Assembly (NCBI GenBank): GCA_963692865.2
Contig: OY843592.1
Span: forward strand, 2,784,001-2,848,000
Origin: a bacterium
GTDB lineage: Bacteria > UBA8248
Direction: 5' to 3'
DNA length: 64,000 bases
Numbering within the stretch: the first letter of the stretch is position 1; the number at the start of each line of letters is the position of its first letter. Below are positions 13,554 to 17,797 of the stretch, piece by piece. The notes beneath the pieces are model-generated. The model was not told where the DNA came from, did no database searches, and worked only from the letters and a program-made list of their open reading frames with translations. The position numbers and the translations under genes were made by a program.

Positions 13554-14591
13554 ATGAACGATTCACCGAAAATCGGCATGGCCTTCATCGGCCTCGGCTG
13601 GTGGGGCGCCGTGCTCGCCGACGCCGCCCTCGCCTCCGGGAAAGTGCAGGTAACCGGCGGCTTCGCCCGCACGCCCTCTTCCCGCGAGGAATTCGTGGGC
13701 AAATACGGCGGGAAGAATTTTTCTTCTATTGACGAGGTGATGGCCGACTCCGAAACAGAGGCCGTCGTCATCGCCACGGCGAACTCGGTACACAAAGAAA
13801 TCGCGCTCGCCGCCGCCCGCGCGGGCAAGCACGTTCACCTGGAAAAGCCGATGGCGCTCAGCGTCTCCGACGCCAAGGCCGTCGAGCAGACGTGCAGAGA
13901 CCACGGCGTCAAACTCCACATGGGGCAGAACTTCAGGCGCTGGCCGATGTTCCGAAGAGCGAAGGAAATCGTGGAGAGCGGGAGTCTCGGCCTCGTGAAC
14001 TACACGGTCGCCACGTTTTCGAACAACCACGGCTTCACCTCGGGTCCAAATAGCATGAGATGGGACGCCACGGAGAACCCGGGCGGCCCGCTCTACAGCT
14101 ACACCATCCACCTGGGCGACGTGATGGAATACCTCTTCGGCGACGTGGAGGAAGTGAGCGGCTCATGCGCCAAGGTGGGCGGCCCCAACCCCCAGGAAGA
14201 CGCCGCCGCCGCCATACTGCGCTTCAAGAGCGGGCTGATGGGTACGATATCGGGCAGCTATCTGGCGCCCTTCCATTTCGCCTTCGACGTGCAGGGCACC
14301 GAAGCGAACCTGAGCCTTTCCACCACCGAGAACCCCACCCTCAAGCGGCCCATCGACCTCATGGGCGGCCTCGAAACCGAAACCGTGGAACTCGAACACG
14401 ACCTGGTGGAGGGGAGACTTCTGGCCAACCGCGAACAATTCGACGATCTGGTCGCCGCGATTCGAGAGGACAGGGACCCCGAAGTCACCGGACGCCACGG
14501 GGTGCGCGCGCTCGCCATCATGCGGGCGATTCTCAAGAGCAACGCCGAGAGGCGCATCGTGTCGATCGAGGAGATTCTGGAGACCGACTAG
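13554..14591 (+). CDS. Gfo/Idh/MocA family oxidoreductase
   Basis: GLGWWG Rossmann motif, GKHVHLEKPMA, GGPLYSYTIH. Confidence 0.9.
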   Translation: MNDSPKIGMAFIGLGWWGAVLADAALASGKVQVTGGFARTPSSREEFVGKYGGKNFSSIDEVMADSETEAVVIATANSVHKEIALAAARAGKHVHLEKPMALSVSDAKAVEQTCRDHGVKLHMGQNFRRWPMFRRAKEIVESGSLGLVNYTVATFSNNHGFTSGPNSMRWDATENPGGPLYSYTIHLGDVMEYLFGDVEEVSGSCAKVGGPNPQEDAAAAILRFKSGLMGTISGSYLAPFHFAFDVQGTEANLSLSTTENPTLKRPIDLMGGLETETVELEHDLVEGRLLANREQFDDLVAAIREDRDPEVTGRHGVRALAIMRAILKSNAERRIVSIEEILETD

Positions 14592-14705
14592 GCCGGAAAC
14601 CAAGCCTCTCGCCACGGGGGCTCGATTCGCGTATAATCTCGACCGTTGGCCCATCGCATGTCTGCGACTTGTTCCGCCCGGACTCGTCCCGGAAACGGTT
14701 TTCCC

Positions 14706-15521
14706 ATGGGCAGGCGCCGCGATACGCCGGATTTCACCCGCTCCAACAAAATCCCGGCGCTCGAATACCAACCCAAAGCCCAGGAGCGCGAACTCACCAG
14801 CAGGCTCATCGCATCCCGGAGCGCGAGCGAGCGCGAGGCGCTGGGCCAGAATCTGCTCGACGGCATCTGCCGCAGCCTCAAAATCTCCCGCGCGCGCCTG
14901 CGCGTGTTCGAAGAGCGCCAACCCCACAAGTTGCGCGGGGGAAGACTCGCCTACAAGCTCTATGGCGTCTATCACTGCGACAGCGCGGTGATCGAAATCG
15001 CCAATCTCACCTCGATCCGCAAACAGGTCGTCGCAGGCAAGACGTTTCTGGATACCCTCATCCACGAACTCATGCACCACATCGACAGAAAACTGCTCCG
15101 AATACCCTCCACGCCCCACGGCCCCGGATTCTACGCGCGCATCGAGGACTTGAAAGCCAAGCTCATGCGTGGGAGGGGCGGGGAGCGGGAAGCTCCGCAA
15201 GAAGCCGCCTGGCAAAAACCCAAGGACCTCACGGCGGCTCTTGAGTCGGCGGCCGCAGACGCCCGGTCGAGAAACGATCATTCGAACCGGGAACAGCCGA
15301 GTGAGGCGGTCTCCGGTGAGAGCCGCGTAGAAACGAGAAATTCGAGATCGGCCCTTCCGGAAGAATCCGACTCCCTGGCACAGGCGCCACTTGTAGATGC
15401 GAACGCAGAGAACCCTCCCCAAAAACCGCCGCGCGCCCGAGGAGAAGAGAGCATTTCTGCGAATCATCCCCCAAAAGACGCTTCGGGAGAGAAGGAGCCG
15501 CAACTGTCGTTTGATTTTTAG
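14706..15521 (+). CDS. SprT/WLM-like zinc metalloprotease-domain protein with disordered tail and C-terminal QLSFDF motif
   Basis: DTLIHELMHH...PHGPGFY (HExxH plus third His); about 110-aa low-complexity tail; TATAAT at about 14632. Confidence 0.72.
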   Translation: MGRRRDTPDFTRSNKIPALEYQPKAQERELTSRLIASRSASEREALGQNLLDGICRSLKISRARLRVFEERQPHKLRGGRLAYKLYGVYHCDSAVIEIANLTSIRKQVVAGKTFLDTLIHELMHHIDRKLLRIPSTPHGPGFYARIEDLKAKLMRGRGGEREAPQEAAWQKPKDLTAALESAAADARSRNDHSNREQPSEAVSGESRVETRNSRSALPEESDSLAQAPLVDANAENPPQKPPRARGEESISANHPPKDASGEKEPQLSFDF

Positions 15522-15732
15522 CAAAATGACAGATTTTGATTCATTAGAAAGTTTTCTTCTGAAACTGTCATTTTAGGAAACAACTATGGTTTCAATATGT
15601 AAAGACAATCAGAACAGAAAAGTCGCGTTCTAAGCCAACATTTAATTTTCCGAGAGCACTCGGCTTTGGGGCAGCTGCGGCGATAGTGTATCCTATGCGC
15701 ATTAGTTGGAAGCGCCATCTGGAGACGTGCCC

Positions 15733-16944
15733 ATGAAATTCATCCACAAACTCGGAATGCGGGGTCTCCTGTCGTTTCCTCCAGACATGGAACCCTTTGA
15801 GCTTCATGACCTCAATGTTCTTATCGGCCCGAACGGCTCCGGCAAATCGAACATCATCGAAGTCATTGAACTCCTTCGCGCCACGCCGACGGATTTCGCC
15901 GCCGCAATCCGGGACGGCGGCGGGGCGGAGGAATGGATTTGGAAAGGGGAAACCAATAACAGGGTTGCTGAAATAGAAATTGAAACCGGTGACATGTCCA
16001 CCGGTCTCAAGACGCCGACCGGGCGGGCTTTACGCTACCGCCTCGAGTTCGTGGACAACAATACTCGCGTCGAAGTACTCGACGAAGCGATTGAAGAGAC
16101 AAAACCTCTCCCTGGCAAAACAGATACTTATTTCTACTACCGTTTCCAACGGGGAAACCCCGCTGTCAACATAAGGGAACATGGCGAAACCATTCAGAAA
16201 GAAAAACCCCCTCGATGGATAGAAAGGCGTGAACTACAACCGGATCAGTCTGCTCTCAAACAAATCAAGGGGCCGGAATTATATCCAGAATTGACTTGGC
16301 TGGGACGACAATTTGAAGAAATCCAGATGCTGCGCGACTGGACCTTCGGGCGCTACACGAAACCACGTGAGGCACAACGGGTGGATTTGCGCGAAGACCG
16401 CCTCCTTGACGACTGCCGCAATCTCGCCCTTATCCTCAACAAAATCGAACACGAGCAGGTTTCACTTGAATTCAACAAGCTTCTCAAGCGCTTCTTTCCC
16501 TGCTTCGAGAATATGTCCACCAGGGTATCCGGTGGCAGGATACAGTTTTATCTGCATGAAACAGGCTTCCGCTCTGCAGTCCCGGCAACGCGTCTTTCTG
16601 ACGGGACGCTCCGGTTCGTCGCGCTCCTCGCCACGCTGCTGACGCCTTCGCCGCCGCCGCTGGTCTGCATCGACGAGCCGGAATTGGGACTTCACCCCGA
16701 CGCAATATCCCTCGTCGGTGATCTCATGGTCGAGGCATCCGAGCGCACCCAACTCATCGTCGCGACCCACTCGGATGCGCTTATCTCCGTCCTGTCCGGC
16801 AAACCGGATGCAGTAATCGCCTGCGAGAGGCTGGGCGAAGGAACGACGCTGCGTCGGCTCGACTCCGATAAGCTCGCGCACTGGCTGGAGGATTATGCGC
16901 TCGGCGACCTGTGGCGCATGGGGGAGTTGGGCGCTAATCCGTGA
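15733..16944 (+). CDS. ABC-type ATPase (AAA_15/AAA_21, AbiEii/RloA-like)
   Basis: Walker A GPNGSGKS, signature LSDGTLRF, Walker B IDEPELGLHP, H-loop ATHS. Confidence 0.9.
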   Translation: MKFIHKLGMRGLLSFPPDMEPFELHDLNVLIGPNGSGKSNIIEVIELLRATPTDFAAAIRDGGGAEEWIWKGETNNRVAEIEIETGDMSTGLKTPTGRALRYRLEFVDNNTRVEVLDEAIEETKPLPGKTDTYFYYRFQRGNPAVNIREHGETIQKEKPPRWIERRELQPDQSALKQIKGPELYPELTWLGRQFEEIQMLRDWTFGRYTKPREAQRVDLREDRLLDDCRNLALILNKIEHEQVSLEFNKLLKRFFPCFENMSTRVSGGRIQFYLHETGFRSAVPATRLSDGTLRFVALLATLLTPSPPPLVCIDEPELGLHPDAISLVGDLMVEASERTQLIVATHSDALISVLSGKPDAVIACERLGEGTTLRRLDSDKLAHWLEDYALGDLWRMGELGANP

Positions 16945-17555
16945 AAATCGCGATCTACATGGAAGGCGGAGGGCCAAAATCCAACTCCCAGGCCATGCTG
17001 CGCCAAGGAATGGATGCGTTTCTAGCGAAAATCAAAGACGCTTACTGCAAGAAGAAATGGAATTGGAAGCTGGTTCCTTGCGGGGGGCGAGACGAGGCGC
17101 ATAAACGTTTTCAAAACGAACGCAGAAACAACAACGCCGACATCATCGTGCTCCTGGTGGATTCGGAAACCAAAGTCTTCAAGAAACCCGCCGCTCACCT
17201 AGCAGCGCGTGACGGATGGAATTTCGACGGCGTCGACGGCGATTTTATCCACCTCATGGTTCAGACGATGGAGACGTGGATAGTCGCCGATCCGGAGGCA
17301 CTCGCTAGTTATTACGAGCAGGGCTTTCAAGCAAACACCCTGCCCCGCCACCAGAATCTTGAAGCGGTGAGAAAACGCGATATCGCACAGGCTCTAAATC
17401 GAGCCACTCAAAGAACGCGAAAGGGGAAATACCACAAAATCCAACATGCCAGACATCTCCTGCAACAAATCGATCCGGTGACCGTGCGCGAAAAGTGTCC
17501 ACATTGCGAACGGCTGTTCGAGATACTCCTCGGGCGCATGGATTCCGGCGTATAA
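16941..17555 (+). CDS. DUF4276 / RloB-like (TOPRIM-like) protein
   Basis: IYMEGG, LLVDSE, MVQTMETWIVAD, YHK, CP motifs; GTGA overlap with the ATPase. Confidence 0.78.
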   Translation: MKIAIYMEGGGPKSNSQAMLRQGMDAFLAKIKDAYCKKKWNWKLVPCGGRDEAHKRFQNERRNNNADIIVLLVDSETKVFKKPAAHLAARDGWNFDGVDGDFIHLMVQTMETWIVADPEALASYYEQGFQANTLPRHQNLEAVRKRDIAQALNRATQRTRKGKYHKIQHARHLLQQIDPVTVREKCPHCERLFEILLGRMDSGV

Positions 17556-17797
17556 ATCAGAATCCTCACTCAGGAGCCGCAACTGTCGTTCGATTTTTGA
17601 TTTCTATAATCTGCTTTAGATAAACGACATTAGAACCTGAAATATAAAGTGAAAAAAATTCAAGCAATACGCCCGCTTGGAGCGATCTCCCGTTTCCCGC
17701 TTCGGGCGGTTGTTTTTCGTCCGGCGATTGGGTAAAGAAGTGATCTGGGCATACGCCATCATACAATCCAGAGCATATCGCAGAGGAGTTTCCCAAC

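Follow-up and report, generated by a model that had tools for sequence, protein, structure and literature searches.

Background

Wss1 and SPRTN are eukaryotic metalloproteases that travel with the replication machinery and remove proteins crosslinked to DNA, and their loss leads to genome instability. In SPRTN, an HExxH motif is followed by a third histidine some 14-15 residues further on, and a PCNA-interacting peptide (PIP) box docks the enzyme on the sliding clamp PCNA; the tail of Wss1 carries SUMO- and Cdc48-binding motifs. Here we describe a gene at positions 14706-15521 of a 64,000-nucleotide stretch of bacterial DNA (lineage UBA8248; assembly GCA_963692865.2, contig OY843592.1, positions 2,784,001 to 2,848,000), hereafter the window. 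Its product of 271 residues, a predicted zinc metalloprotease hereafter referred to as the protease, joins a domain of the Wss1/SPRTN fold to a C-terminal hexapeptide, QLSFDF, of the type by which bacterial proteins dock on the beta sliding clamp, DnaN.

Established clients of the bacterial clamp, among them Pol IV, Pol II, Hda and MutS/MutL, carry motifs of the consensus QL[SD]LF or QLxLxL/F in a flexible region or at a terminus, and no established clamp client is known to us to be a protease. The SprT-like family of bacteria (PF10263) includes the uncharacterised SprT/YggI of E. coli, a protein not known to us to have a clamp motif. Other small zincins are the minigluzincins, in which zymogen tails block the active site, and IrrE, which has additional helix-turn-helix and GAF-like domains. 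The site of the YbeY hydrolases consists of histidines only, arranged as H-x3-H-x5-H.

Passages of a 2025 review of the replisome refer bacterial crosslinks to papers on excision repair and recombination and bring in SPRTN for eukaryotes only (PMC12593628), and another 2025 paper reportedly imported a nematode crosslink protease (PMC13424408). In the full-text literature, from which subscription journals are largely absent, we found neither a description of a bacterial SprT/Wss1-like protease with a clamp-binding motif nor a protease among the beta-clamp clients. As far as that literature extends, what is new is the combination: the catalytic fold and the docking motif are each known, and together they are undescribed in bacteria. 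A conserved bacterial protease of Wss1 fold with a clamp handle is a concrete candidate for the missing bacterial crosslink protease. If the proposal is correct, it would be the first protease among the beta-clamp clients, and the same architecture of protease, floppy tail and clamp peptide would have arisen in two domains of life.

Results and discussion

Fold and catalytic site of the domain

A word-indexed homologue search with the protease (E ≤ 1e-3) returned 62 sequences, referred to here as the close homologues, and the few of these that are named come from Nitrospinota and Tectomicrobia metagenome genomes. An exhaustive search of 1.84 billion representatives yielded 436 at E ≤ 1e-3 and 102 at E ≤ 1e-10, and the majority of the 436 are about 150 residues long, i.e. 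the domain alone. Analyses of distant members were based on the 147 new proteins (P0064-P0210) among 150 listed of the 436 representatives. A family alignment of 148 rows was assembled from 12 of the 62 close homologues and 136 of the 147 distant ones (length of at least 125 residues, HExxH present). H120, E121 and H124 are invariant in all 148 members, and H125, D127, H138, G141, F142 and R145 are each at least 90% conserved. Its conservation and its position 14 residues after H124 make H138 a candidate third zinc ligand; H125 and D127 meet the same level of conservation.

When a profile of the 148 members was compared with the PDB, two matches were obtained, both to Wss1 of S. pombe (5jig, E 0.0039; the E203Q mutant 5ln5, E 0.52). 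A structure predicted by AlphaFold2 from the family alignment had a predicted local distance difference test score (pLDDT) of about 97 over residues 1-155, about 90 over a helix at residues 175-195 and 50-59 beyond it. Foldseek searches against the PDB placed Wss1 from two yeasts at ranks 1-5 (E 5.6e-3 to 2.8e-2, probability 0.99-1.00) and SPRTN at rank 9. VIA-align, a second structural aligner independent of Foldseek, was run over 48,161 chains and ranked Wss1 5xbn first (Z 8.4, root-mean-square deviation (rmsd) 3.3, 104 aligned residues), SPRTN 6mdx second (Z 7.7, rmsd 3.4, 110 aligned residues) and Wss1 5ln5 third (Z 7.2, rmsd 3.2, 95 aligned residues), followed by YbeY-like hydrolases, minigluzincins and PprI at Z 5-6.4; by the aligner's own caveat, best Z values of 7-8 are usual also for models lacking a true match. 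The weight lies in the agreement of the sequence profile, Foldseek and the second aligner, and since these three agree, the domain is a Wss1/SPRTN-like minimal zincin. The SprT/Wss1-like core proposed in a preliminary description of the window, which was made from the DNA letters and their translations, was thus recovered by fold comparison, and the HELMH motif, the downstream histidine and the terminal QLSFDF that it reported all belong to a real gene.

The SprT-like profile of Pfam (PF10263) scored the protease at E 0.034 and 14.4 bits (cut-off 25.6), with the weak similarity located around the HExxH helix, and the WLM profile (PF08325) at E 0.12 and 12.8 bits (cut-off 26). Because these scores lie below the gathering thresholds, we file the protease and its relatives as a related sister family, unnamed in Pfam, NCBIfam and PHROGs, rather than as members of either Pfam family, and the membership of the protease rests on profile and fold evidence. 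Across the 148 members, matches at E ≤ 0.01 were seen to SprT-like (33), WLM (16) and Peptidase_M76 (9). A match in PHROGs v4 was found for only 3 of the 148, no PADLOC family matched the protease, and a cluster look-up of 10 distant members returned only 'hypothetical protein'. No fused or longer form appeared among 7,999 scored candidates of 514-2000 residues, which is weak evidence. The host genome encodes one copy of the protease and no canonical SprT scoring over the PF10263 cut-off.

Wss1, the best structural match, resembles the protease in layout as well, both having a small HExxH domain (about 120-150 residues) followed by a flexible tail with short partner-binding motifs. The two differ in that identity is about 20%, the tail of the protease ends in a bacterial clamp-type motif, and the highly conserved N-terminal residues 1-36 of the protease fall outside the range aligned with Wss1, 37-159. 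With SPRTN, the second-best match, the protease shares the HExxH motif with a downstream histidine and the same logic of a protease domain, a disordered tail and a peptide that docks on a sliding clamp. However, neither a zinc-binding subdomain nor a ubiquitin-binding zinc finger nor a p97-binding motif was recognised in the protease; SPRTN-type tail modules gave no match in Pfam or NCBIfam, and the short motifs of the eukaryotic partners, which one would not expect in a bacterium, were not searched for. DnaN takes the place of PCNA as the clamp in question, and a QLxLxL-type motif that of the PIP box, and because both the clamp and the type of motif differ, the resemblance in architecture to SPRTN is probably convergent, on a homologous catalytic domain.

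The minigluzincins selecase, projannalysin and proabylysin, together with IrrE/PprI, are neighbours in the minimal zincin fold (Z 5.7-6.3), and the titles of its structure entries link PprI/IrrE, a zincin protease, to the DNA-damage response. Unlike Wss1 and SPRTN, which they score below, these proteins gave no sequence-profile match, and they have no clamp motif. The YbeY-type neighbours listed by VIA-align (1oz9, Z 6.4; 7y7o, Z 5.4; 1xm5, Z 5.2) bring up the alternative that the protein is a zincin-like hydrolase other than a protease, such as a YbeY-like nuclease or another metal-dependent nucleic-acid enzyme acting at the clamp. We regard this as very improbable, as the invariant HExxH includes the catalytic glutamate of zincin peptidases, both structure searches rank Wss1 and SPRTN above YbeY, and the sequence profile matches Wss1 alone.

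Conservation of the terminal motif

The part of the protein after the domain had been described as a charged, disordered tail of about 110 residues. Residues 161-271 are acidic, with an isoelectric point (pI) of 4.8, beside the basic residues 1-160 (pI 10.3), and the segment from about residue 196 to 271 is modelled at low confidence; residues 175-195, however, form a conserved helix, and to that extent the tail is not disordered. In an alignment of 22 homologues, a near-invariant domain is followed by the conserved helix (in this region W169, P172 and A178 are invariant and L175 and A182 at least 90% conserved), a variable linker and a terminal Q-L that is at least 90% conserved.

The pattern Q[LM]x[LFM](F|x[LF]) was found within the last 25 residues in 54 of the 62 close homologues, as QLSFDF (33 sequences), QLTFDF (5), QLTLDL (4), QMSFDF (3), QLALAF (2) and seven other forms seen once each. 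Six of the eight exceptions are shorter sequences (168-219 residues); the remaining two are P0017, whose tail looks frame-shifted, and P0061, in which the motif lies 36 residues from the end. The motif was also present in all 27 related loci of Nitrospinota and Tectomicrobia (L004-L030), as in the window, one of them ending in QLSFDY. Throughout these loci the glutamine, the leucine or methionine and the two hydrophobic positions are kept, while position 3 is occupied by S, T, A, G, L, E or P and position 5 by D, A, E or G. Since the residues are kept while their codons change synonymously (CAA/CAG; CTG/TTG/CTA/CTC/CTT; TTT/TTC), the constraint acts on the protein and not on the DNA.

For the more distant members, the landmarks of the domain were located in 195 of 209 proteins (62 close and 147 distant), including 135 distant ones, and the 14 in which they failed were dropped. 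Tails of at least 30 residues occur in 37 of the 135, and 12 of these 37 have the motif in the last 25 residues, whereas 2000 shuffles of the same tails gave 0.05 on average and never more than 2. Several distant tails end in the textbook pentamers QLSLF, QLDLF and QLRLF, and two of the 14 dropped proteins end in QLMLPF and QPMLPF.

A FastTree phylogeny of the domain alone was computed for the 148 rows. For its scoring the motif was slightly relaxed to admit P, T or I as the second residue as well, and tails had to have 15 residues or more. The motif occurs in 26 rows, all of them in one half of the tree (61 rows) and none in the other (0/87), and is distributed over a clade in which every row has it (15/15, support 100), a pair (support 99), a single row and a further clade with 8 of 14 rows (support 95). 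At least seven motif changes are needed, four of them forced by well-supported branches; with shuffled labels the mean was 24.3, and none of 500 shuffles gave a value as low. The motif is thus found in at least four clades, whose tails are not alignable with each other. As a background, a loose motif of the type Q[LM]x[LFMI]x[LFMI] terminates only 15 of the 24,494 stop-to-stop frames of at least 80 residues in the host genome. Given this low background and the conservation of the motif where the tails are not conserved, the ending of the protease is more than chance. The preliminary description had put forward just this behaviour, with the motif persisting in homologues as the rest of the tail diverges, as a check of its proposal.

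Two further features of the tails were observed. A second motif, R-x-P-R-W-T-P-P, often followed by S-L-F, is common to many homologues, including those of Tectomicrobia, and may be a second docking peptide. In a subfamily (L033-L035, L038, L040, L044, L046 and L047) from Eisenbacteria, Acidobacteriota-type, Bacteroidota, Elusimicrobiota and Gemmatimonadota genomes, the clamp-type tail gives way to a conserved C-terminal extension that lacks the motif, Y-Y-P-L-A-W ... G-S-R-x-I-D-W-P-E-T-N-R-R.

Modelled docking on the sliding clamp

The host genome has one dnaN gene (L001:706-1863, minus strand), with a product of 385 residues. DnaN was aligned with 44 homologues, and its complex with residues 232-271 of the protease tail was modelled. 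Three runs gave an interaction prediction score from aligned errors (ipSAE) of 0.76, 0.76 and 0.77, compared with 0.00 for the best of three controls. In a calibration, 58 of 80 solved complexes attained the 0.76 level, as did 2 of 110 mismatched pairs; these counts hold only approximately here, as our own alignments were used. At least 94% of contacts are common to the runs, and the pLDDT of the partner is at least 45. In the models, tail residues 264-271 contact DnaN at positions 173, 175-176, 178, 263-265, 267-268, 298, 300, 339, 363, 365 and 381-385, most of which are invariant (T173, G175, H176, L178, P263, Q267, V268, N339, M381, P382, M383 and R384). We take these positions to be the canonical peptide cleft between domains II and III seen in structures of E. 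coli beta. The protease therefore resembles the beta-clamp clients in having the same motif consensus at the end of a disordered segment and in being modelled on the same invariant DnaN residues. A pass of this kind may in part reflect the many solved clamp-peptide complexes, and what the model indicates is a likeness to a clamp-binding peptide, short of binding. The placement of the motif on the clamp that the preliminary description anticipated was therefore reproduced in the models, and neither of the contrary outcomes it named for computation, a motif lost among homologues or a core of unrelated fold, was obtained.

The same peptide could have another main use, as a latency plug in the active-site cleft, a degron or a site for some other docking partner. 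A plug would be in keeping with the presence of projannalysin, proabylysin and selecase among the structural neighbours (Z 5.7-6.3; Foldseek ranks 13-20), and a hydrophobic peptide at the C-terminus could plausibly mimic a substrate. However, residues 267-271 are left undocked in the single-chain AlphaFold2 model, with pLDDT below 50. The fixed and variable positions also fit the clamp consensus Q-L-x-L/F-x-L/F, in other subfamilies a canonical pentamer (QLSLF, QLDLF or QLRLF) takes the place of the hexamer, and the tail is predicted to dock on DnaN at a score far from that of the controls. We consider it rather improbable that the motif serves mainly in one of these other ways, and the roles of plug and clamp handle are not mutually exclusive.

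Ordinary clamp-type motifs were also noted in other proteins of DNA-repair type in the host genome. Its Y-family polymerases carry QPLLF (a DinB-like polymerase) and QIKLPL (a second one). A 446-residue radical-SAM protein with a helix-hairpin-helix (L101, G000:C1:2985733-2987073) has QLSLGL 27 residues from its end and may be another unlisted client of the clamp. Five candidates were scanned with Pfam, and among them only this protein looked relevant; a peroxiredoxin probably carries its motif by chance and three had no family.

Proposed mechanism and its weighing

In our proposal, the protease is a zinc metalloprotease of small size with the SprT/Wss1 (minimal zincin) fold, expressed from a promoter of its own and belonging to the core chromosomal proteins. 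Its compact basic domain (residues 1-156), with HExxH and the downstream histidine, would be the catalytic part, and the conserved helix followed by the flexible, fast-evolving linker would join it to QLSFDF, which would insert into the hydrophobic peptide-binding cleft of DnaN in the manner of the motifs of polymerases and repair proteins. Through its binding to the clamp, the protease would stay on DNA at replication forks and in their wake, where it would cut proteins stuck on or crosslinked to the template, i.e. DNA-protein crosslinks or other roadblocks, as a bacterial analogue of PCNA-docked SPRTN. That the protein is a protease tethered to the clamp we consider quite likely. The complete statement, in which the clamp-held zinc protease cuts stuck or crosslinked proteins on the template, is in our view slightly favoured. 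Crosslink repair in particular is suggested by analogy and is possible, if somewhat doubtful, since the substrate is argued from two things only, the function of the nearest characterised folds and the basic domain.

A fuller version of the proposal is rather more doubtful and is offered tentatively. The protein would be a replisome-coupled crosslink protease, a zincin of Wss1/SPRTN fold sitting on the clamp, whose architecture arose independently of SPRTN and for which the clamp is both the recruiter and the switch; phages would carry the bare domain, and handles would have been added repeatedly in several phyla. Switching on could come about if the tail resembles a substrate and is drawn out of the active site when the clamp is bound.

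The evidence from fold, motif and docking would equally suit a clamp-tethered regulator of the replisome that cleaves clamp clients (stalled or excess polymerases, Hda-like regulators or toxins sitting on the clamp) or the clamp itself, so that clamps left on DNA are cleared or reset. Nothing in the data names the substrate, and the lack of damage-repair neighbours and of a recognised SOS site would agree with such a housekeeping role. On the other hand, the closest characterised folds, Wss1 and SPRTN, belong to DNA-dependent crosslink proteases, the basic domain suggests DNA rather than a specific protein client, and no partner gene is conserved beside the protease gene. We therefore hold a regulator of this kind to be unlikely.

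Several observations weigh against a clamp-tethered crosslink protease, and to them belong the sub-threshold Pfam scores, the caveat of the structural aligner and the possible influence of solved clamp-peptide complexes given above. No DNA-binding or zinc-ribbon subdomain was recognised in the protease with Pfam or NCBIfam. As many as 87 of the 148 aligned rows (about 60%) have no tail, and because this share of the family is tail-less and the members in 44 viral contigs are tail-less too, the basic job of the domain does not require the clamp. The tails of other subfamilies are basic, unlike the acidic tail of the window protease, in which, moreover, the second tail motif R-x-P-R-W-T-P-P is degenerate (R-N-S-R-S-A-L-P-E-E-S, at about 15342-15380, residues 213-225). 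No repair gene is found among the neighbours of the protease gene, the flanks of which are metabolic, and no SOS-type operator was recognised upstream of it, a weak negative given that the LexA site of the lineage is not known. The gene was found in none of four genomes of a genus with genomes of 2.0-2.2 Mb and in one of nine genomes of the other three families of the phylum, with a weak match; as it is missing from the small-genome genus and from nearly all of these other families, it is dispensable.

Gene structure and a probable promoter

The coordinates of the protease gene and of neighbouring features are collected in Table 1. The start region M-G/R-R-R-R-D-T-P-D-F is common to all 22 aligned homologues at the ATG at 14706, and because they begin alike there, this position is the likely, and better, start within the longer open frame. 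The promoter-like site matches the sigma-70 consensus at 10 of 12 positions and is the only sigma-70-like site in 14450-15750 (shuffled sequences average 0.4), and both of its hexamers lie in conserved columns of an alignment of 15 upstream regions. Since the site is unique in 1.3 kb and its hexamers are conserved, the gene probably has its own promoter.

Table 1. Positions of the protease gene, its parts and neighbouring features (window coordinates except where a locus or residue numbers are given)
Feature	Position	Strand	Basis or remark
Open frame containing the protease gene	14646-15521	+	Open reading frame (ORF)
Protease coding sequence, 271 residues, stop included	14706-15521	+	ATG start at 14706
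Stop codon TAG of the protease gene	15519-15521	+	
Predicted zinc-protease domain, residues 1-156	14706-15173	+	AlphaFold2 pLDDT ~97 and Wss1/SPRTN structure matches
HELMH zinc-binding/catalytic motif, residues 120-124 (H120, E121, H124)	15063-15077	+	H120, E121 and H124 invariant in family
H138, candidate third zinc ligand, in PSTPH-x-PGFY	15117-15119	+	Conservation
PHGPGFY	residues 137-143 of protease		
Conserved helix after the domain, residues 175-195	15228-15290	+	Model pLDDT ~90 and conservation
Low-confidence, poorly conserved linker, residues 196-265	15291-15500	+	pLDDT 50-59; length and sequence vary among homologues
C-terminal QLSFDF, last six residues, candidate beta-clamp-binding motif	15501-15518	+	
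Promoter-like site TCGCCA-17-TATAAT, upstream of the protease gene	14609-14637	+	Sigma-70 consensus match
HEC-01A gene	15706-16944	+	PADLOC 1.7e-151
HEC-01B gene	16941-17555	+	PADLOC 6e-69
27-nt direct repeat, 26/27 identical	15493-15519 and 17572-17598		Brackets the 2.08-kb HEC-01 cassette
308-residue alpha/beta hydrolase in the alternative insert	L011:6852-7778		Abhydrolase_1, 2.2e-31

The -10-like hexamer is separated from the ATG by 68 bases (14638-14705) that are well conserved in close relatives; they are without an obvious Shine-Dalgarno sequence and hold an imperfect inverted repeat, GTTCCG ... CGGAAAC. A long frame on the opposite strand (14163-15524) was set aside as the usual by-product of high G+C content.

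Distribution and genomic context

The protease gene was found in 37 of 51 genomes of the phylum, the host genome included. Of the other genomes in the same family 35 of 41 have it, and of those in the same genus 21 of 22. In the relatives it lies in a conserved block, preceded by an M24 peptidase gene on the opposite strand and genes for an enoyl-CoA hydratase and a Gfo/Idh/MocA oxidoreductase and followed, on its 3' side, by a 136-residue ORF and genes for a DinB_2-superfamily protein, a luciferase-like monooxygenase and a DEAD-box helicase. It is a single-copy, syntenic core chromosomal gene. More distant relatives occur in Acidobacteriota-type, Eisenbacteria, Krumholzibacteriia, Elusimicrobiota, Gemmatimonadota, Myxococcota-type and Bacteroidota metagenome genomes.

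A tblastn search with the domain (E ≤ 1e-3) found nothing among 50,697 records of phages and 72,556 of plasmids. In the ESM Atlas, the nearest clusters are unnamed or 'SprT-like' and include a few Uroviricota members, which were used only as a lead to a scan of IMG/VR. That scan, made with an alignment of 22 tail-less members, returned 44 viral loci (L054-L097) encoding proteins of about 146-152 residues, many of them on low-G+C contigs of 200-550 kb, and the neighbours of these tail-less members include HNH endonucleases, a ParB-like protein, a pyrophosphatase and a portal protein. As the 44 viral loci hold tail-less members, the family has a phage-borne branch of bare domains beside a bacterial one, where clamp-type tails are frequent.

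Both lexA and recA are present in the host genome. The pattern GAAC-N7-GAAC occurs 144 nt before lexA (L049) and once 247 nt before dinB, with 91 occurrences in the genome, and upstream of recA (L050) there is a palindrome, ATTTTCGC-N9-GCGAAAAT, beside repeated GAA[CT]AT[AG]TTTTCGC words. These are possible SOS operators of the lineage, and neither GAAC-N7-GAAC nor the palindrome was found upstream of the protease gene.

An insertion hotspot at the 3' end of the gene

The genes of the HEC-01 candidate defence cassette, an AAA_21 ATPase (HEC-01A) and a DUF4276 protein (HEC-01B) of lower G+C content (0.54), begin 185 bases downstream of the protease gene on the same strand. The cassette is bracketed by a direct repeat that corresponds to the last eight codons and the stop codon of the protease gene, and from this repeat and the lower G+C content it is a separate insertion. 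In a comparison of 18 loci including the window, the protease was present in all 18 and the cassette in four (the window, L005, L009 and L015), with longer duplicated ends of the protease gene in L005, L009 and L015. Three other loci (L004, L011 and L012) have a different insert of 1.28 kb at the same spot, followed by a duplicated copy of the 3' end of the gene, and 11 of the 18 have no insert. Beyond the distal repeat copy, the ancestral downstream sequence resumes. As two different inserts share the spot together with a duplicated 3' end, the 3' end of the protease gene is an insertion hotspot, at which each insertion keeps the QLSFDF ending intact; no integrase was found inside these inserts.

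The closeness of HEC-01A/B on the same strand allows the alternative that the protease is itself part of HEC-01, as a third component, or of a mobile element, as an ArdC-like anti-restriction protease; ArdC is a weak structural neighbour (Z 4.4), and tail-less relatives do lie in the 44 IMG/VR contigs. We find this scarcely credible. A role in HEC-01 was rejected on the lack of a PADLOC match and on the occurrence of the cassette in 4 of 18 loci against the protease in all, the cassette itself being a repeat-bracketed, lower-G+C insertion. An anti-restriction or mobile-element protease was also set aside, the phage and plasmid records having given no match and PHROGs a match for 3 of 148 members.

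Elsewhere in the window, a 463-residue ORF at 28037-29428 (-) matches no Pfam family at E ≤ 0.001 and, in a whole-genome scan, gave a weak SprT-like match of 19.3 bits, below the cut-off. It lies in a stretch of low G+C content at 28037-32705 (-), falling to 0.47 at 30-32 kb, which encodes Sel1-repeat and tetratricopeptide-repeat (TPR) proteins.

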